Positions 7,752 to 64,000 of a stretch of DNA of 64,000 nt are shown one piece after another. The stretch comes from Candidatus Heimdallarchaeota archaeon (GTDB taxonomy: Archaea; Asgardarchaeota; Heimdallarchaeia; Heimdallarchaeales; Heimdallarchaeaceae). The notes beneath the pieces were generated by a model. The model was not told where the DNA came from. It saw only the letters and a program-made list of their open reading frames with translations, and ran no database searches. The position numbers were made by a program, and so were the translations under genes. The stretch spans positions 1-64,000 of the forward strand of contig JAAFKJ010000043.1 in assembly GCA_021399395.1 (NCBI GenBank), given 5' to 3'. Within the stretch, counting starts at the first letter, position 1. Each line of letters opens with the position of its first letter.

Positions 7752-9413
7752 TTACATCATGCCTGGCATTCCACCCATTCCACCCATTCCACCAGGAGGC
7801 ATTCCGCCAGGTGGCATAGCTGGACTGTCTGATTTTGCAACGATTACATCATCAATTCGCATAATCATTATGGCAGATTCGCTTGCAGATTTGATTGCTT
7901 GAGATACAACTCTATGTGGTTCGATAATTCCTGCTTTGAACATATCTTGAATTTTACCATCCTTGAATAAGTTCAAGCCTTGAGCAACATTTGCTTCAGC
8001 ATGAGCAGAACGAAGTTCGTTTAGAATGTCGAGTGGGTCGATACCAGCATTTTCTGCCAATGTTGTTGGAATTGATAACATTGCATCAGCAAAAGCTTTG
8101 ACCGCTAATTGTCTCTTATCTTTGAACTCATCAGCAAACTCATCAAGTCTTAGGGACAATTCTGTGTAGATTGCTCCTCCACCTGGTAAGTATGTTTTAT
8201 CTTCAACAACATTTCTGACTACACAGAGTGCATCATGAACAGCTCTTTCTGCTTCATCAGTTACGTATTTTGTTGCTCCATAGAGAATAATTGAAACAGA
8301 TTTAGGATTCTTACATTCACGAATAAAGACGTGGTCGTCATCACCAAGTTTGACTTCTTCAACCATACCAGAATAACCAAGATCATCTTCTTTAGCATCT
8401 TTGAGGTTAGTAACGATTTTTCCTCCAGTGGCACGAGCAATTTTTTCTATATCACTCTTCTTTACTCTTCTGACTGCTAGAATATTGTTCTTTGCCATAA
8501 AGTATTGAGCCATATCATCTATGCCTTTTTGAGCAATAACAACATTTGCTCCAGTGGCAACTATTTGATCAACCATATCTCTGAGTATTTGTTCTTCATT
8601 ATCTAAGAAAGATTTCATTTCTAACGGATCATTAATTCTGATTTCTCTGTCCCATTCTCCCTTTTGAACTTCAACATTGTAATTGAGTAATAGAATTTTT
8701 GCATCTTTAACTCTCTTTGGCATAGCTGTATGAACAACTTCTTTGTCTACAATAACGCCTTCAACAAGTTCAGATTGAACAAGATTTTTACCAATCTTTT
8801 GAAGAATTTTTATATTGTCGAGATCAACCTTAAAAGTTCCATCTTCTTCATCTGCAACACTCTTCACACTATCAACAGCTATTTTCCCAATAAGTTCTTT
8901 AGCCCCATGAACAGCTTTACTGTTCAAGGCAGTTCCTGCAATTTGAAGAAGTAATTTTTCGTCTTCAATTGGGTTCAGTTTTTTAGCATATTTATCAAGA
9001 AGCTCTTGAGCTTTTAGAGAAGCAGCTTTGAAACCTTCAACAATGAGGGAAGCATGAATTTTCTTTTCGAGAAGTTCTCCTCCAAGTTTGAGAAGTTCGC
9101 CAGCAACAACAACAGAACTGGTGGTTCCATCGCCGGTTTCTTGATCTTGCGTTTTAGCTATAGAGACAATCATTTTTGCAGCTGGGTGTTGAACATCAAT
9201 TTCATCAAGCAAAGTAGCACCGTCGTTAGAGATCAAAATGTCTCCAAGACTGTCTACCATCATTTTATCCATACCTTTTGGGCCCAGAGTGCTTTTTATT
9301 GTGTCAGCTACAATAGTTGCTGCCATGATATTATTCTTTTGAGCATCTCTTCCCTTGGTTCTTTCAGTTCCTTCTTTGAGGATGATGACTGGTACTTGTC
9401 CTTGACCTATCAT
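7752..9413 (-). CDS. ths: Thermosome (group II chaperonin) subunit
   Basis: STLGPKGMDKM, NDGAT, GDGTTS, GGGA, ENAG and a GGM-rich tail. Confidence 0.97.
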   Translation of the reverse strand: MIGQGQVPVIILKEGTERTKGRDAQKNNIMAATIVADTIKSTLGPKGMDKMMVDSLGDILISNDGATLLDEIDVQHPAAKMIVSIAKTQDQETGDGTTSSVVVAGELLKLGGELLEKKIHASLIVEGFKAASLKAQELLDKYAKKLNPIEDEKLLLQIAGTALNSKAVHGAKELIGKIAVDSVKSVADEEDGTFKVDLDNIKILQKIGKNLVQSELVEGVIVDKEVVHTAMPKRVKDAKILLLNYNVEVQKGEWDREIRINDPLEMKSFLDNEEQILRDMVDQIVATGANVVIAQKGIDDMAQYFMAKNNILAVRRVKKSDIEKIARATGGKIVTNLKDAKEDDLGYSGMVEEVKLGDDDHVFIRECKNPKSVSIILYGATKYVTDEAERAVHDALCVVRNVVEDKTYLPGGGAIYTELSLRLDEFADEFKDKRQLAVKAFADAMLSIPTTLAENAGIDPLDILNELRSAHAEANVAQGLNLFKDGKIQDMFKAGIIEPHRVVSQAIKSASESAIMIMRIDDVIVAKSDSPAMPPGGMPPGGMGGMGGMPGMM

Positions 9414-9570
9414 TTTTTTGCACCTTTTTAGTATTTTAATGTGTTTTGAGTTAACTCTTTACACATATTTCACGTTCCATGTCTAATCACTGATATATAA
9501 TTCTTACGATTAATTGAAAATGCTGCAATGCTGTAAAAAATGATAATATTACTGGAGCTTTTATACTAAA

Positions 9571-9771
9571 AACTATGTTGGGAAAAGGATAAAACGCGGA
9601 TTATTTCGATCAGCTAATGGTCATTTAATCAATGCTGATGTCAATGCTGCTTACAATATCTTAGTCAAAAGCGATCCGAAAGCTATGCCTCCTCGCATAG
9701 CGGACGGGGTAGGAGGATACGTGATGTATCCACTCAGAGTGAGTATAGAACATCTACATGTTTCTATATGA
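9571..9771 (+). pseudogene. tnpB: C-terminal remnant of an IS200/IS605 TnpB
   Basis: The frame reads NYVGKRIKRGLFRSANGHLINADVNAAYNILVKSDPKAMPPRIADGVGGYVMYPLRVSIEHLHVSI*, with the RuvC-III NADVNAAYNI motif. There is an in-frame stop at 9544 and no start codon ahead of the motif. Confidence 0.88.
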
Positions 9772-9831
9772 TTATCTCTAAGAAAGATGTCTGTCCATTC
9801 TTGTTTTAAACAAGAGAAAGTAACTCATCAT
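9668..9831 (+). ncRNA. Putative omegaRNA / IS200-IS605 right end (copy 1)
   Basis: Hairpins GCTATGC/GCATAGC (9682-9701) and GGATAC-GTGAT-GTATCC (9715-9731), a CTAAGAA-loop hairpin, and a terminal CATCAT (9826-9831) complementary to the GTGAT loop. It overlaps the tnpB 3' end. Confidence 0.65.
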
Positions 9832-9839
9832 AATTCTTA

Positions 9840-10508
9840 CTATCTTGAAACCTTTTTTCTATCTTTTCTTTTTCTATGCAATAAAATTACCCATAAAGTG
9901 ACTGTGGTTGTTATCAAAGTAAGTGGAAAAATTATACTCAATTCAGGAATTGTGAAAACTCCAAAATCTGGATAGAAAATATCAAGATCTCCAGAACTAA
10001 TTTCAATTTTAGTATATAGTACTTCTGCAGGATCAACCCACCCAAGAGATGATGCTGTATTGATGGGTCTCCACAGTGTATAGTTCCCATCTGGAAGTCG
10101 AGTCAAATCTGATTGGTTAATATAAAATTCGAATTTCTCATATTCCCTCGTAATCCCAGGTCTATAATCATAATACATTCCTGTAGCATGACACATTATA
10201 TCTTGTTCTAGCTCAAAGGATTGATTGACAAATGTTGCATTAATTAGTACTTTTGGCCAGCAATCTGATAAATCGATTCCTGTATAATTTTCAGTCTCTC
10301 TATTTAGAACTTCAACTCCAACATTAATATTAAATAGAGTCTTATTCGGACCAATATCTCCTGAAAATAAAACAAGAGAAATTTCAATAATTCCAGATAC
10401 TCTTGAAGCGATTACTGGTATTTCACCATTTACTCTTAACAATCCTTGTAGAAGCAATAATAGAAGCAAAAACACACAGAAAATTTTTCTCTTTTTGATT
10501 TTACTCAT
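9840..10508 (-). CDS. Secreted/membrane-anchored hypothetical protein with a C-terminal sorting-like signal
   Basis: N-terminal signal peptide, several NxS/T sequons, and C-terminal IPEL + TM helix + RKRKDRKK. Confidence 0.75.
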   Translation of the reverse strand: MSKIKKRKIFCVFLLLLLLLQGLLRVNGEIPVIASRVSGIIEISLVLFSGDIGPNKTLFNINVGVEVLNRETENYTGIDLSDCWPKVLINATFVNQSFELEQDIMCHATGMYYDYRPGITREYEKFEFYINQSDLTRLPDGNYTLWRPINTASSLGWVDPAEVLYTKIEISSGDLDIFYPDFGVFTIPELSIIFPLTLITTTVTLWVILLHRKRKDRKKVSR

Positions 10509-10683
10509 GGGTATTCCTCTTCTTGTAGCAGAATCTCCAAAATTAACAATAATCTCTTCTGTATTAAATGTTTTTAGGCAAGCCTTTAGCTATCATCTAT
10601 CTTTTTTCTCTTTATTTCATCCGGAATTTAAGAAAATCTTTTTATCATTCAACTTTAAATATCTAATACTGGGGTTATTCCGT

Positions 10684-12255
10684 ATGGATGAAGAAGATAC
10701 CTTTCAAGAAACAGAAAGAATGAGATTATTATTCTTCACTAGCCCTGATTGTTTTGCATGTCCAGAGGTAGAGAGAGTAATAGAGAACATCGCAGGTACT
10801 TCTATGAAGGGAATTCTTCATGTTAGTACTATAGATATCTCTGAAAATCAAGAGATTGCAGCTCAATATGGAATTCTGAGTGTTCCTGTCGTGATGATGA
10901 ATGATGAGCGGATAGCTGAAGGAATGATTACTGAAGATGTTATCCGTGAGAAACTTTGGTCTCAAATTCTACCAAACATCATAGAGCGAGAGCGAGATAC
11001 TAGACGCACTGAAAGCATGATGATTCTTACAAAGAATACCATTAGTAGTATCATCTCTCAAGAATTAGTTCGTAAGAATTTAGGTGATTATGTCCACATT
11101 AGCGTCTATCAGCAAGTGATGATGTCGCTCTTACAATTAGATCCATTAATTCCACAGCTTCTTTATCAAAATGGTAGAGAATTAGGTATTTTCGGTGCAG
11201 CTCCTTACTATCTTACTGTTCTTAACCCCAAAGTAGGTGCAGTTAAACCTGAAGAAAGATTTCAAGAGACTCTTATTGCTCTTGCTCAACTTTATAGTCA
11301 CAATAATACTATTCCTCTCTATTATGCTACTCAATGTGATGTTGCACAAATGGAAGGGTATACTGCTACTCTTCGAATTTATGAATTAGCTAATAGTGCA
11401 GGAGCCATTAATATCGGGGAAACTCTGTGTCATTTTACAGCTGGTGAAATCGCTGGAACCGTTGAAGCAATGATTGGTTCTGCTACAAGTGTAAAAGAGA
11501 CCAAATGTAAGGGACTTGGAGACCCATTTTGTGAATTTGAAATAGAGGTATACTTAGGTAAAGAGCCAGGAAAAGCACCTTATCTTGTTCATGAAACTAA
11601 AATGGAAGATAGGAAAGTACAATTCCTTGGAGACTTTCCAGCAGAAGATCACAGAAGACAATTGTTTTACGAATTTATACATGAGACAACCTTGCATGGT
11701 TATAATTCTCTGAAAATGACCGAAGCTCTTAGACCAAACGATGTAGATTATGTTCATATCAGCGCCCTTCAACAACAGATTATCTCTTTAAAGTTTAAAG
11801 ATAAATTCTGCGGTGCTCTCTTGTATTCCGCTGGAAGAGAGTTGGGTGTGATTGGTCCAGGGAAAGCTTTGATTTATGATTTATTAGCAAAAGAGCAGGC
11901 AGAATTACCGATAGAGTCTCTAAAACAAGCTACTAAAATTATGATGGAATATTTCACTCATCCAACTAATTATTTGCCAAGAGCTCATTCCTTTGTTGAG
12001 ATATCAGAAGGAGAAGAAGAGGACGAAATGTATCTCCGTATCTATGAATGTGCTTATGCATCTGGAGCTAACTTCTCAGAGACAGATATGAATGAAACCC
12101 TATGTGATTTCCAATCTGGATACATAGCAGGAAGATTAGCTCTAATCCTAAAAGATCCTCCTATCGTGACTGAAATAAAATGCCATGGAACAGGGCATAA
12201 TTACTGCGAATTCAGAATAGAAAAAGGATACTCCTTCGAAGAAGAAGGACACTAA
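10684..12255 (+). CDS. Thioredoxin-domain protein fused to two V4R domains
   Basis: FTSPDCFACP...YGILSVP (Trx fold), followed by two V4R repeats: ETLCHFTAGEIAG..ETKCKGLGDPFCEF and ETLCDFQSGYIAG..EIKCHGTGHNYCEF. The likely start is ATG 10684, preceded by a TTTAAATA box. Confidence 0.85.
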   Translation: MDEEDTFQETERMRLLFFTSPDCFACPEVERVIENIAGTSMKGILHVSTIDISENQEIAAQYGILSVPVVMMNDERIAEGMITEDVIREKLWSQILPNIIERERDTRRTESMMILTKNTISSIISQELVRKNLGDYVHISVYQQVMMSLLQLDPLIPQLLYQNGRELGIFGAAPYYLTVLNPKVGAVKPEERFQETLIALAQLYSHNNTIPLYYATQCDVAQMEGYTATLRIYELANSAGAINIGETLCHFTAGEIAGTVEAMIGSATSVKETKCKGLGDPFCEFEIEVYLGKEPGKAPYLVHETKMEDRKVQFLGDFPAEDHRRQLFYEFIHETTLHGYNSLKMTEALRPNDVDYVHISALQQQIISLKFKDKFCGALLYSAGRELGVIGPGKALIYDLLAKEQAELPIESLKQATKIMMEYFTHPTNYLPRAHSFVEISEGEEEDEMYLRIYECAYASGANFSETDMNETLCDFQSGYIAGRLALILKDPPIVTEIKCHGTGHNYCEFRIEKGYSFEEEGH

Positions 12256-12286
12256 GGAGCTTCTCTAGTTCAATAGGATAATCTTT

Positions 12287-12557
12287 GTGATGTGTTTTCA
12301 TCATGTTGACTTCTTAGCCAATCATCGTTGAGTTAATTTTGTAGTCGTTGTATGTTTCATTCCTTGTGGGTCTACACATACTCTACATGGGTACATCACG
12401 TACCCTCCTACCCCGTTCACCACACTTGAGCATGGTTTTCGGATCGCTTGTTCTCATTCTTGATGAGTATGGTGGAAGGAGATCCATTTTTCTTGTAGCT
12501 TGACTACAATCCGCAATGGGAGGTGGTCGCATAGGCTACATGAGTGTTAAATCACTC
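12287..12557 (-). mobile_element. Non-autonomous TnpB-derived element / orphan omegaRNA (copy 2)
   Basis: The minus strand of 12371-12449 is homologous to 9669-9750 (AAGCGATCCGAAA...ACGGGGTAGGAGG(A/G)TACGTGATGTA(T/C)CCA). It ends in ACATCAC (12293-12287). A TATA-like CTTATATA lies at 12587-12580. Confidence 0.68.
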
Positions 12558-12745
12558 TTTCTTAATAAAGACATTTAACTATATAAGCCCCTATAATATT
12601 AGCTTTAGTTATCTTTTAAACTGACTATAGACCCATTTAGCTTAACGAAACTGCATGAATTTCTAACAAGACTGCATGACAAATATCTTTATAACTTATT
12701 TTTTTTGTAGATTTCAAGAACAGTTTTATTCACAGGAAGATTATA

Positions 12746-13231
12746 ATGAGTTCAAAAATAAGGATACTGGATAAACAGTCAATGTGGCCTAGTGTAGTCG
12801 CAGTTTTTGCTATTTCTTTCTTAGCTCAAATACCACATTTCTATTATTTACATGACATCGTCGAATTTAATACTTGGGAGTATCTTCCATTATTGATAGC
12901 ATTTCCTATTTTTGGAACTTTTGTTCTAACAGCTGTTTCACTTTTAATCTCTGAAGCTCTAATGAATAGGGTAAGAGATGTTAGGGAAAGGAAGTTATTC
13001 AGATATCTCTTGAGAGGAGCACTTTATACTGTTTTACTGTATTTTGTAATTCAAATATTAATAGTGTTCTTTGGGTTTGAAGCCATAGAGGCATTTAGAG
13101 AGCTCATGCCTCCAGGTTTAGTTGATAGTGTTGCTTTCAAAGAAATTTTTGGAATGTCTTTAATGTTAATTGTTGGTATCTTCATTAATCCACCAATCCA
13201 AATAACAAGAAGACGAACTAAAAAGAAGTAA
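12746..13231 (+). CDS. Hypothetical membrane protein (about 4 TM)
   Basis: Four hydrophobic segments and a basic tail. Confidence 0.7.
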   Translation: MSSKIRILDKQSMWPSVVAVFAISFLAQIPHFYYLHDIVEFNTWEYLPLLIAFPIFGTFVLTAVSLLISEALMNRVRDVRERKLFRYLLRGALYTVLLYFVIQILIVFFGFEAIEAFRELMPPGLVDSVAFKEIFGMSLMLIVGIFINPPIQITRRRTKKK

Positions 13232-63339: not shown

Positions 63340-63430
63340 TGAGCTACACACGTTATGAAACTTGGTTAAACTTGCCAGAGGCTTTTTAACCGTCGTCTAA
63401 GGTTGTCCCCTCACGTGTGTTGAGGGGAAG
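63340..63430 (-). ncRNA. omegaRNA 3' part / transposon right end of the adjacent tnpB
   Basis: Hairpin CCCCTCA/TGAGGGG (63407-63427) whose loop is complementary to 63346-63353, forming a pseudoknot; a second hairpin GGTTAAA/TTTAACC (63364-63391). Confidence 0.65.
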
Positions 63431-63999
63431 AGATCGTAAGGAAGAGGAGTACCCTTGAGGGAAGCGATGTTTAAAGCAGCATTCTCGTGAGAGTTGACCT
63501 GTTGACCACATTTTTTACAAGGGGCAACATCATGATGACCTTTAGCACGAGCAATCGTCCCTCCACAACCATAATGTCTGGTGCTGGTATGATAGGGGGG
63601 AACAGCTTCTAACTCTACATCATAGCTTAACTCTAGGGAAGCTAACCAGACTGCTTTCTTGTAAATGTAAAGTTTATCAGGCATGTTATAGATGGCTTTA
63701 GCTAGCGCTCCTTTGGTACCGGTAGGGTCAGCGGTCAACTCCTCAATCTTCAGAGTCTGACACTGTTTCTTCACCATAACTGCAGCTAAGAAGTGAGGAA
63801 GACGACGAGTGATCTCACGGAGTAAACGGCTGCGACGCTGATAGACTCGGTTGAGCTCACCCTTGAGCTTACACGAACCTCGAATATCGTAAACCTTGCG
63901 TTTGTTAAAGAACCCCTTATCTAATTCCTTGAGGACTTTATCTGTCAACTTCTGGTAACGTTTAGCTAACTTTAGCAAATCTGGAGGAAGTGGAACTGG
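63397..63999 (-). CDS. tnpB: TnpB-like RNA-guided nuclease (5' part outside the window), atypical RuvC-III
   Basis: Bridge helix, RuvC-II KIEEL, VPPYHTSTRHYGCG...CKKCG Zn finger, NSHENAALNIA. The frame is open to the window edge and visibly richer in GC than the host genes. Confidence 0.85.
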   Translation of the reverse strand, partial: PVPLPPDLLKLAKRYQKLTDKVLKELDKGFFNKRKVYDIRGSCKLKGELNRVYQRRSRLLREITRRLPHFLAAVMVKKQCQTLKIEELTADPTGTKGALAKAIYNMPDKLYIYKKAVWLASLELSYDVELEAVPPYHTSTRHYGCGGTIARAKGHHDVAPCKKCGQQVNSHENAALNIASLKGTPLPYDLFPSTHVRGQP

Positions 64000-64000
64000 A

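Follow-up and report, generated by a model that had tools for sequence, protein, structure and literature searches.

Two loci in a Heimdallarchaeota genome are very likely omegaRNA-bearing derivatives of tnpB-only transposons

Can the guide RNA of a transposon nuclease outlast the nuclease gene beside it, and can it then be used in trans? Two loci in the window, a 64,000-nucleotide stretch of contig JAAFKJ010000043.1 from Candidatus Heimdallarchaeota archaeon, raise this question. The original prediction, made from the sequence alone, described them as orphan guide-RNA loci. Our analysis found an omegaRNA-like scaffold of one TnpB family at both, and indicates that they are transposon derivatives rather than free-standing RNA genes. 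We consider it very likely that both loci are omegaRNA-bearing transposon derivatives, and likely that their identity and anatomy are those of gene-less derivatives of tnpB-only, IS200/IS605-like elements. Their parents would be the tnpB-only, IS200/IS605-like insertion sequences that are abundant in Heimdallarchaeota.

The loci share a 163-nt module of one family, present at full length in copy A (9669-9831, plus strand) and copy B (12449-12287, minus strand). The homology claimed for them is borne out: blastn aligned the copies at 75% identity across 81 nt (E 6e-8), a pairwise alignment was concordant, and both copies spanned positions 1-155 of the 155 positions of covariance model R1, scoring 136.3 bits (A) and 124.9 bits (B), with the two copies themselves part of the training alignment. 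The stem, end and 20-nt flank motifs read earlier from the sequence are all in place. The CTAAGAA motif, thought to mark a hairpin kept by both copies, does occur in each, at positions that are not homologous: in copy A it lies mid-scaffold (9778-9784, CTCTAAGAAAG), in copy B it lies in the terminal hairpin loop (12317-12311), and in alignment A3 the copy B homologue of the copy A motif is GACTACAAAAT. Both loci are protein-less as predicted, copy A holding a 65-codon tnpB 3' remnant alone and copy B no tnpB-derived frame. A covariance-model scan of the 2.8-Mb genome, which had been proposed, returned 31 matches, and nhmmer matched the module 33 times. A search of Rfam 15 over 9000-13200 gave no match at E up to 1; Rfam may lack a scaffold of this lineage. 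Contigs from other runs span the junctions of both copies, and four other metagenome runs showed no empty-site variant of copy A or B. Among the runs listed for the locus, none is recorded as RNA.

The scaffold was delimited in each copy by covariance-model score, fold and pair counts. In copy A (plus strand) it comprises P0 (9676-9678/9705-9707), stem 1 (9682-9688/9695-9701), stem 2 (9715-9720/9726-9731, loop GTGAT 9721-9725) and the pseudoknot partner CATCAT at the 3' end (9826-9831). The equivalents in copy B (minus strand) are P0 (12442-12440/12415-12413), stem 1 (12436-12430/12425-12419), stem 2 (12405-12400/12394-12389, loop GTGAT 12399-12395) and CATCAC (12292-12287). Stem 1 reads GCTATGC/GCATAGC in copy A and ACCATGC/GTGTGGT in copy B; stem 2 reads GGATAC-GTGAT-GTATCC and GGGTAC-GTGAT-GTACCC, respectively. 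Folding each copy singly gave the same stems (z-scores -2.19 and -2.34).

Structural conservation was assessed on alignment A3, which holds 98 copies (20 from this genome and 78 from other Heimdallarchaeota MAGs). Across these sequences 89.7% of the cells were paired, against 30-48% when the partners were slid by 1-3 columns, and both sides had changed in 16 of the 34 pairs. None of 500 shuffles matched the observed pairing or covariation score, a significance that is overstated because the copies are related. The covariation first noticed between two copies thus extends to the 98 for both stems. Both-side changes numbered 47, 29 and 44 at stem-1 pairs 16-31, 17-30 and 19-28, and stem-2 pair 49-61 was AU in 70 sequences, GC in 24 and GU in 3. 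The predicted loop-to-3'-end pseudoknot, in which the GTGAT(G) loop pairs with the last six bases, CATCAT (columns 53-58 x 203-208), was 99.5% paired and is backed by two separate compensatory changes, pair 58-203 being GC in 85 sequences, UA in 8, GU in 2 and other in 2, and pair 57-204 UA in 95 and AU in 1. G-U pairs are abundant (pair 53-208 in 95 of 97 sequences, pair 14-33 in 74), which points to a sense RNA rather than double-stranded DNA. A covarying terminal hairpin (helices 6-8, 68-93% paired) is set back by 17-18 nt from the right end; in copy B it contains two non-standard pairs in the model alignment.

The covariation could predate the loss of tnpB, a concern that is answered in part by the 15 protein-less copies. 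In these alone, 95% of the cells are paired and 9 of the 21 pairs show compensatory changes; none of 500 shuffles did as well. In several mini-elements the stem-1 loop has lost 4 nt, a frame-breaking change, and the stem is retained. Compensatory changes among the mini-elements could have been imported by recombination with full-length copies.

The module belongs, as proposed, to one TnpB family bearing the G[KR]RIKRGLF motif, in which it is 3'-terminal and abuts the right end. The condition that would have counted against the prediction, a genome lacking an intact cognate TnpB, does not apply: in at least five intact tnpB genes (424-461 aa) the module spans the 3' end; two further tnpB genes are cut by contig ends. 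The tnpB stop of all five intact copies falls 107-155 nt after the start of the module. The scaffold overlaps the last ~35-50 codons and ends at the right end with CATCAT. These full-length parents are tnpB-only, occur in many copies per genome and have their left end ~130 nt upstream of the tnpB ATG. Public genomes contain 239 related stretches; among the best 80 of the 239, 78 are titled Heimdallarchaeota and 79 have the module at the tnpB 3' end. TnpB P0001 matches PF01385 (62 bits) and PF07282 (43.9 bits), and the segments AIDLG, PEDYTSK and NADVNAAYNI align weakly (E 1e-4) with RuvC motifs in an RNA-guided nuclease of solved structure. The cognate TnpBs appear to retain the RuvC D-E-D motifs. 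A CxxC...CxxC zinc finger between RuvC-II and RuvC-III is absent from the sequences of the five intact TnpBs, which read TSK[CS]SFLDNE...RGLF[RT]SA.G..IN[AS]DVNAA where the weakly aligned solved chain has CHVCG...CPSCG.

Copy A (9505-9831, plus strand, its start approximate to +/-15 nt) is a tnpB element truncated at its 5' end and deleted internally. The window up to ~9503 aligns with the region upstream of the thermosome gene in the congeners G017 and G001, and diverges beyond. A left-end remnant at 9546-9575 (plus strand; nhmmer left-end HMM, E 1.3e-4) matches HMM positions 98-127 alone and contains the TATA-like motif ATATTACTGGAGCTTTTATAC. In the left-end alignment this motif lies ~30 nt before the tnpB ATG of full-length copies, and it is a putative promoter. 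Translation of 9574-9771 (plus strand) gives the last 65 tnpB codons, YVGKRIKRGLFRSANGHLINADVNAAYNILVKSDPKAMPPRIADGVGGYVMYPLRVSIEHLHVSI, and the stop; the open frame has 74 aa in all, the upstream gene body is absent, and PF07282 matches partially at 9586-9660 (18.6 bits). Homology to other copies stops at 9831. With ~360 tnpB codons, the left-end terminus and TTAT lost, copy A is probably immobile. Independent internal deletions that keep the same 3' part are seen in copy A, at C174:92168 and in C197.

Copy B (12287-12690, minus strand, 404 bp) is a mini-element that is complete but has no gene, and precisely this interval is lacking where G017 and G001 are syntenic. It consists of a left end, a ~110-nt family-specific module, the scaffold (12287-12449) and a right end, and its ORFs are unconserved frames of 49-51 aa only. 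Left-end HMM positions 19-124 match at 12701-12573. The 5' module (12450-12572, minus strand; conserved ...GACCACCTCCCA..GGATTGTAGTCAAG...) is specific to the mini-element family: it was not found inside full-length tnpB elements, local alignment to four of them matching the left-end part alone. It is conserved in 13 copies, is predicted to form a long hairpin and is present in 8 of the 25 genus genomes; the 5' part of the mini-elements is ~71-77% identical between copies. The family is PATE/MITE-like and has 8 copies in this genome, with siblings of copy B at other loci (C136, C171, C23, C179, C54 and C174). A left-end palindrome (AGTCATATTAAAC...GTTTAAT.ATGACT) was spotted by eye in C15 only.

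Comparison with empty sites places a target- or TAM-like TTAT directly 5' of the left end of copy B (12691-12694, minus strand). The empty sites, from the same genus, read AAGTTAT/AAATATTATCC in G001 and AAGTTAA/AAAGATTATCC in G017. The insertion lies exactly 3' of TTAT, and a target duplication is absent. On our reading, copy B inserted after its lineage split from the two congeners. Among 21 full-length copies whose flanks were read by eye, the motif before the left end was TTAT in 17, CTAT in 2 and ATAT in 2.

The guides start where they had been predicted: homology among the copies breaks off after CATCAT, and the copy B empty site in two congeners confirms the position, TTAT or TTAA being followed there by guide-like sequence. 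The predicted guide of copy A (9832-9851, plus strand), placed by the homology break, runs into ORF 9840-10508 of the minus strand, covering its stop codon (9840-9842). That of copy B (12267-12286, minus strand), placed by the empty sites, lies just downstream of the stop of a thioredoxin-V4R gene, which ends at 12255. The right-end boundary of copy B is set to within a 6-nt AAAGAT ambiguity; that of copy A is supported, and its TAM context is gone. The search for guide targets, proposed more broadly, was run on the genome itself, where the only 20/20 match of each guide was its own locus.

IS200/IS605 transposases recognise subterminal hairpins. A Y1 transposase (PF01797) was found neither in this genome (82% complete) nor in the 25 genus genomes searched, zero counts that, coming from incomplete MAGs, are not proof of absence; 7 of the 47 genomes of the order have the domain.

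In the mechanism we propose, transcription from the left-end promoter would run through the scaffold and on into the flank, TnpB from intact copies would bind the scaffold in trans, and the loop-to-3'-end pseudoknot would set the start of the flank in place as a guide of ~16-20 nt. At copy B the complex would cut the TTAT-plus-guide joint left by excision of the element, and the cut joint would favor restoration of copy B by recombination, which is the retention model of bacterial IS605 elements. Against the retention model stands the excision step, for which no Y1 transposase was found in this genome or in the 25 of the genus. Real use of copy B in trans has, in our judgement, slightly less than even odds. 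Copy A is no longer excisable, so its guide would lack a natural target and its RNA could do no more than occupy TnpB; its use in trans is improbable. It is also unlikely, though somewhat less so, that the tnpB family has spawned guide-RNA-only selfish elements in this genus, equipped with a conserved 5' hairpin module of their own, under RNA-level selection since the loss of tnpB, inserting cleanly at TTAT even though a Y1 transposase was not found in the 25 genus genomes, and parasitising TnpB and some mobiliser in trans. The symmetric TTTGTCAT/ATGACAAA subterminal inverted repeats might indicate a mobilisation route other than that of textbook IS200/IS605 elements.

The two loci may instead be inert scars, whose structure was inherited from functional parents and is decaying, with no RNA of consequence and no use by TnpB. 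The truncation of copy A, which took its left-end terminus, TTAT and most of tnpB, fits this reading, as do the weakened terminal hairpin of copy B, guides that match their own flanks alone, the failure to find a Y1 transposase in the 25 genus genomes, and the right-end-only fragment C93, which shows that plain decay happens. Decay is harder to reconcile with mini-elements that are ~71-77% identical in their 5' part and yet keep 95% pairing with compensatory changes, and whose frame-breaking indels are confined to loops. Also against decay, the window copies score 124.9 and 136.3 bits, compared with 134-158 for tnpB-linked copies, and three independent internal deletions all kept the left-end promoter motif and the scaffold. 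We regard inert scars as a rather unlikely explanation, one that nevertheless deserves weight.

Two further explanations give the loci another role. The helices could act in single-stranded DNA as right-end recognition hairpins for a transposase, a mode of recognition described in the introduction of Meers et al., and the covarying hairpin 17-18 nt from the right end would suit such a role. Stem 1, stem 2 and the pseudoknot, however, lie 100-155 nt from the end, far past the reach of a transposase; positions dominated by G-U would, as DNA, form weak G-T pairs, with C-A on the opposite strand; the pseudoknot mirrors that of the omegaRNA in the cryo-EM account (PMC10097598); and a Y1 transposase was found neither in this genome nor in the genus. 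This makes a role in DNA very unlikely. Slighter still is the chance that the loci are domesticated, TldR-like guide RNAs regulating neighboring host genes. Exapted TnpB regulators are reported from bacteria (10.1101/2023.11.30.569447), and the copies do converge on two genes, encoding a 222-aa membrane or secreted protein and the thioredoxin-V4R protein, with guide A overlapping the stop of ORF 9840-10508 and guide B lying 12 nt beyond that of the V4R gene. The same two genes, however, are syntenic in congeners without either element, the RuvC D/E/D motifs persist in the cognate TnpBs, each guide is the element's own flank beside CATCAT rather than TTAT, an ordinary transposon layout, and the flanks differ at every other copy.

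The reading as omegaRNA-bearing transposon derivatives can be set against known systems. As in ISDra2 of Deinococcus radiodurans, the scaffold runs across the 3' end of tnpB as far as the right end, flanking DNA serves as the guide, and the left end is preceded by a short T-rich motif, TTAT here and TTGAT in ISDra2. Unlike ISDra2, the scaffold is 163 nt long with two extra covarying helices upstream of the pseudoknot hairpin, detectable sequence similarity is absent, TnpB is without the zinc-finger cysteines, and tnpA was not found in the genus. In the ISDra2 pseudoknot, as it is described in PMC10097598, bases -2 to -6 pair with -102 to -106; here -1 to -6 pair with -106 to -111, a similar distance from the guide.

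Copy B resembles a PATE, having a left and a right end, an omegaRNA scaffold, no protein gene and a need for TnpB in trans; copy A is a truncated remnant and not a PATE. The concept is not new, because PATE-borne omegaRNAs, and the idea of their use in trans, have been published for bacteria (Geobacillus stearothermophilus, Meers et al.). Unlike those PATEs, the present elements have an archaeal host (Heimdallarchaeota) and an extra conserved ~110-nt module absent from the parent elements, and their cognate transposase was not found. With their tnpB-only parents, many copies and amplified short derivatives, they also resemble archaeal tnpB-only 'IS1341-type' elements and MITEs, presumably including the named archaeal IS1341-group elements. 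The separation of the guide-RNA locus from the protein gene is shared with TldR and exapted TnpBs, unlike which the guide is still a transposon flank, the nuclease motifs are kept and a conserved host target is absent.

No archaea are closer to eukaryotes than the Heimdallarchaeota. Our analysis provides a delimited, covariation-supported 163-nt omegaRNA scaffold, with its pseudoknot and TTAT motif, for one of their abundant TnpB families. The clean insertion/empty-site polymorphism, despite a Y1 transposase undetected in the genus, is a mechanistic puzzle. Gene-less guide cassettes beside intact nucleases are a tangible example in which guides may be used in trans, and the same example bears on the separation of guide and nuclease genes, an assumed step from transposon nucleases to CRISPR-type systems.

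The two modules in the window share a 163-nt omegaRNA-like scaffold, located at 9669-9831 (+) in copy A (~9505-9831) and at 12449-12287 (-) in copy B (12690-12287). Their homology over 9669-9750 (+) and 12449-12371 (-), as claimed in the original prediction, amounts to 75% identity over 81 nt (E 6e-8), and the motifs, ends and flanks quoted there were all found where it had placed them. On the 5' side of copy A, the C-terminus of a TnpB, RuvC-III motif included, can be read in one frame (YVGKRIKRGLFRSANGHLINADVNAAYNILVKSDPKAMPPRI), and in the same frame the invariant ACGGGGTAGGAGGxTACGTGATGTAxCC encodes NGVGGYVMYP. Since the module codes for C-terminal residues of TnpB, intact elements have it inside the 3' part of their tnpB, where an omegaRNA scaffold is expected; because of this overlap, covariation in the module must be judged against coding constraint. 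In the window's own genome, a 301-nt query found 26 places at E < 1e-3 and an iterated nhmmer profile found 33 matches. The covariance model that had been proposed as a check was built (R1), and its scan of this genome returned 31 matches. Copies A and B score 136.3 and 124.9 bits, both over the full length and both as members of the training set; the tnpB-linked copies range from 134 to 158 bits, a range within which we count both. The R1 search found no third copy in the 64-kb window, and a permissive Rfam scan of 9000-13200 found no matching family.

The absence of an intact cognate TnpB, which the original prediction had allowed for, can be dismissed. Pfam models gave 24 TNB-domain and 17 OrfB_IS605 matches in the genome, and an intact tnpB (424-461 aa) is present in five copies (on contigs C170, C106, C131, C15 and C161), in each case with the stop codon 107-155 nt inside the module. 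Two more contigs (C63, C189) have full-length tnpB frames with the module cut at the contig end, and in another three (C24, C70, C109) the frame is still open where the contig stops. The protein from C106 (P0001) scores 62 bits with PF01385 and 43.9 bits with PF07282, and has relatives in 239 stretches of the genome collection. Among the best 80 of these 239, 78 are titled Candidatus Heimdallarchaeota, 1 Thorarchaeota and 1 Cloacimonadota; the module is found at the tnpB 3' end in 79 of the 80, the exception (L112) stopping within tnpB. The relatives on short contigs of the metagenome-assembled genomes titled Cloacimonadota and Thorarchaeota (L107 and L112) are 69-75% identical to the TnpB, and their placement could be due to mis-binning or transfer. 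In all five intact proteins, the CxxC...CxxC zinc-finger cysteines are absent between RuvC-II and RuvC-III (TSK[CS]SFLDNE...RGLF[RT]SA.G); the cysteine-free family nonetheless matches the TNB-domain model. A sequence search of solved structures with the TnpB gave a weak match to a designed nuclease only.

Stems 1 and 2 are predicted by RNAalifold already from 20 copies of the own genome, with 5 of 15 pairs compensated. We counted the full structure, consisting of P0, stem 1, stem 2, a short hairpin, a terminal hairpin and a pseudoknot, on an alignment of 98 sequences (20 own, 78 foreign) trimmed from AAGCGATCC to CATCAT. It leaves out 13 own nhmmer matches, which are contig-end fragments or belong to a diverged third group, and one foreign locus cut by a contig end (L081). 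Pairing is observed in 89.7% of 3156 cells, versus 30-48% after sliding the partners by 1-3 columns. Both-side changes occur in 16 of 34 pairs, a number reached by 3 of 500 shuffles, and in 239 cells versus 85 +/- 10 in the shuffles (0/500); these counts are not probabilities, as the sequences are related and the structure was partly derived from the same sequences. Stem 1 contributes the main share of covariation, with 47, 29 and 44 both-side changes at pairs 16-31, 17-30 and 19-28 and up to 6 pair types. Because stem 1 sits on variable codons (KA.P..R..), these changes are not explicable by synonymous drift. The compensatory A-T to G-C change predicted in stem 2 holds in the larger alignment, where pair 49-61 is AU in 70 sequences, GC in 24 and GU in 3. 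At several positions G-U is the main pair (95 of 97 sequences at 53-208, 74 at 14-33), and such abundance fits a sense-strand RNA rather than DNA.

In the pseudoknot, bases -1 to -6 pair with -106 to -111, and pairing reaches 99.5%. Eight diverged foreign copies have GTGATT in the loop and AATCAT at the end, so that pair 58-203 is U-A instead of G-C; in these copies base 58 clashes (C-U) with its stem-2 partner C52. A variant on C54 and C174 (C174b) combines loop GTGAA with end TTCAT, by which pair 57-204 becomes A-U; of its two rows, one was counted and the other is gapped. The geometry is similar to that reported for the ISDra2 omegaRNA, where bases -2 to -6 are described as pairing with -102 to -106 (PMC10097598). 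The middle of the scaffold varies between subfamilies and carries no assigned helix in our structure, and an unbiased all-against-all covariation scan gave too much noise for the 3' half to be defined from it. P0 and both stems were recovered when copies A and B were folded singly (z-scores -2.19 and -2.34). The scaffold shows the testable features of a TnpB omegaRNA.

In full-length copies the left end starts directly after TTAT; reading their flanks, we counted TTAT in 17 of 21, CTAT in 2 and ATAT in 2. About 100 nt into the left end and ~30 nt before the tnpB ATG is a conserved ATATTACGGGrGCTTTTATAGG, which looks like an archaeal TATA promoter. The original finding is real and could be resolved in detail. 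Near copy A, the window matches the region upstream of the thermosome gene in two other genomes of its genus (G017, G001) to ~9503 and diverges beyond. Only positions 98-127 of the left-end profile match, at 9546-9575, and tnpB homology begins at ~9570-9574. This partial left end and late tnpB start indicate that copy A has lost the left-end terminus, TTAT and ~360 codons. The TATA-like motif and the scaffold are retained together with 65 codons; end-dependent excision cannot act on this copy. Adjoining its right end is a 222-aa ORF whose last ~30 codons (9840-9937, -) are unalignable with G017 and whose stop codon is inside the predicted guide; the insertion of copy A may have reshaped the 3' end of this ORF. 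Other deletion derivatives in the genome include C174:92168, in which ~60 N-terminal tnpB codons are fused to the C-terminus, and C197:6150-6881 (-), in which 10 N-terminal codons are fused in frame to the last 108, giving a 119-aa mini-ORF with an intact left end upstream. C93 carries a fragment with the right end only.

Copy B has both ends. Left-end profile positions 19-124 match 12701-12573, TTAT included, with a 26-nt insertion; owing to this insertion, the left end (12690-12600, -) shows three tandem variants of a TGTCATG.AGTC motif. Positions 12287-12690 are exactly absent from G017 and G001, whose flanking genes are ~80% identical. The minus-strand sequence is AAGTTAT|AAATATTATCC in G001 and AAGTTAA|AAAGATTATCC in G017, and AAGTTAT, 404 bp, AAAGATTATCC in the window. 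Copy B is an insertion 3' of TTAT without target duplication, the exact cut being subject to a 6-nt AAAGAT ambiguity, and the comparison with these empty sites confirmed its predicted guide (12286-12267). Between the left end and the scaffold with its right end is a conserved ~110-nt module (12572-12450, -). The same architecture is found on C136, C171, C23, C179, C54 and at C174:82821 in the own genome, and in 7 of the 24 remaining genomes of the genus. The module was not detectable inside full-length tnpB genes, local alignments to four full-length elements matching the left-end part only, and a left-end-like match within it (12508-12475) is not significant (E 3). RNAalifold predicts a long hairpin, whose GACCAC...GTGGTC is changed to GATCAC...GTGATC in C23 with compensation, and siblings of the module are found at L142-L156; it is specific to the gene-less mini-element family. 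Both ends, this module, the scaffold and the empty sites in congeners identify copy B as a PATE/MITE-like mini-element, with the testable features of a gene-less IS200/IS605 derivative except an identified transposase. A more diverged third group is also gene-less (C164:35036-35216, C40:15273-15398 and C179:20494-20621; R1 55-57 bits). It has a GGATTGTAG motif in common with the mini-element module, and we identified no cognate tnpB for it.

The original prediction cautioned that the covariation could predate the loss of tnpB. An alignment of 15 gene-less sequences alone (the two window copies, the C174 derivative C174a and 12 mini-elements), leaving out three 54-nt matches, one contig-end copy and C197, speaks against this: 95% of 303 cells are paired versus 27-52% in slid controls, 9 of 21 pairs are compensated, and 0 of 500 shuffles reach any of five measures. 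In several mini-elements, the stem-1 loop is 4 nt shorter and the stem is intact, which argues that the fold stayed under selection after the reading frame was gone. The same picture could, however, arise by recombination with full-length copies.

Could the arrangement of the two copies have another origin? All four junctions are bridged by contigs from further metagenome runs (two studies), so the copies are not assembly chimeras. One low-depth contig has an opposite-strand joint, 9683/12425, most simply explained as an assembly cross-over between the inverted copies. In four other metagenome runs (X3-X6), no empty-site variant was found and no contig joins across either element in 9300-12900; contigs break at the repeat cores. 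The convergent pair could be viewed as a composite transposon, which we reject, as the two enclosed genes are syntenic in congeners without the elements. An IS607-like element at 63397-64000 (-) of the window, extending to ~66400 of the contig, has two other copies in the genome (C28:23300-26800 and C195:500-4000). In all three, a serine recombinase (196-213 aa) is followed by a 641-647-aa TnpB-like gene, with a common right end; this TnpB-like protein has a CxxC zinc finger, and HENAALNI in place of the ADVNAAYNI of the small family. As mobilisers of copy B these elements are no obvious match, and their right end (...AACGTGTGT) bears no relation to that of the CATCAT family. Y1 transposase (PF01797) was detected neither in the own genome nor across the genus (25 genomes searched), and was found in 7 of 47 genomes of the order; at three Y1 tnpA loci of related genera, no R1 module is present within 2-3 kb. 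The 25 genomes without detected Y1 are nonetheless rich in tnpB elements, and at copy B the occupied and the empty TTAT site differ cleanly.

The cycle known for IS605-type elements is the best-supported reading. With a guide derived from the flank, TnpB would cut at the TTAT-guide joint that excision leaves behind, and recombination after the cut would restore the element. For targets beyond the own flank, the guides matched at best 13-14 nt exactly, or 15-18 nt if 1-2 mismatches were allowed, which we judged to be chance. Transcription from the putative promoter, processing and cleavage would be expected of such a cycle, and gene-less copies may be loaded in trans; a look for RNA runs covering 9400-12800 found none. 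Gene-less omegaRNAs are already in print for bacteria: PATEs are reported to encode omegaRNAs often, which must be used in trans (Meers et al., 10.1101/2023.03.14.532601). Our literature search found no paper on the Heimdallarchaeial family; supplements of the cited preprints may list archaeal PATE-like omegaRNA loci. The ends of the family have a further feature. In C131, a subterminal inverted repeat of 10 bp without mismatch, TTTGTCATGT / ACATGACAAA, is set back 10 nt from both ends of the element, and its 8-bp core (TTTGTCAT/ATGACAAA) is present in both family consensuses. To our knowledge, subterminal inverted repeats of this kind are not part of IS200/IS605 descriptions. If the element were excised as a circle, the repeats would pair into a stem on which the junction is displayed.
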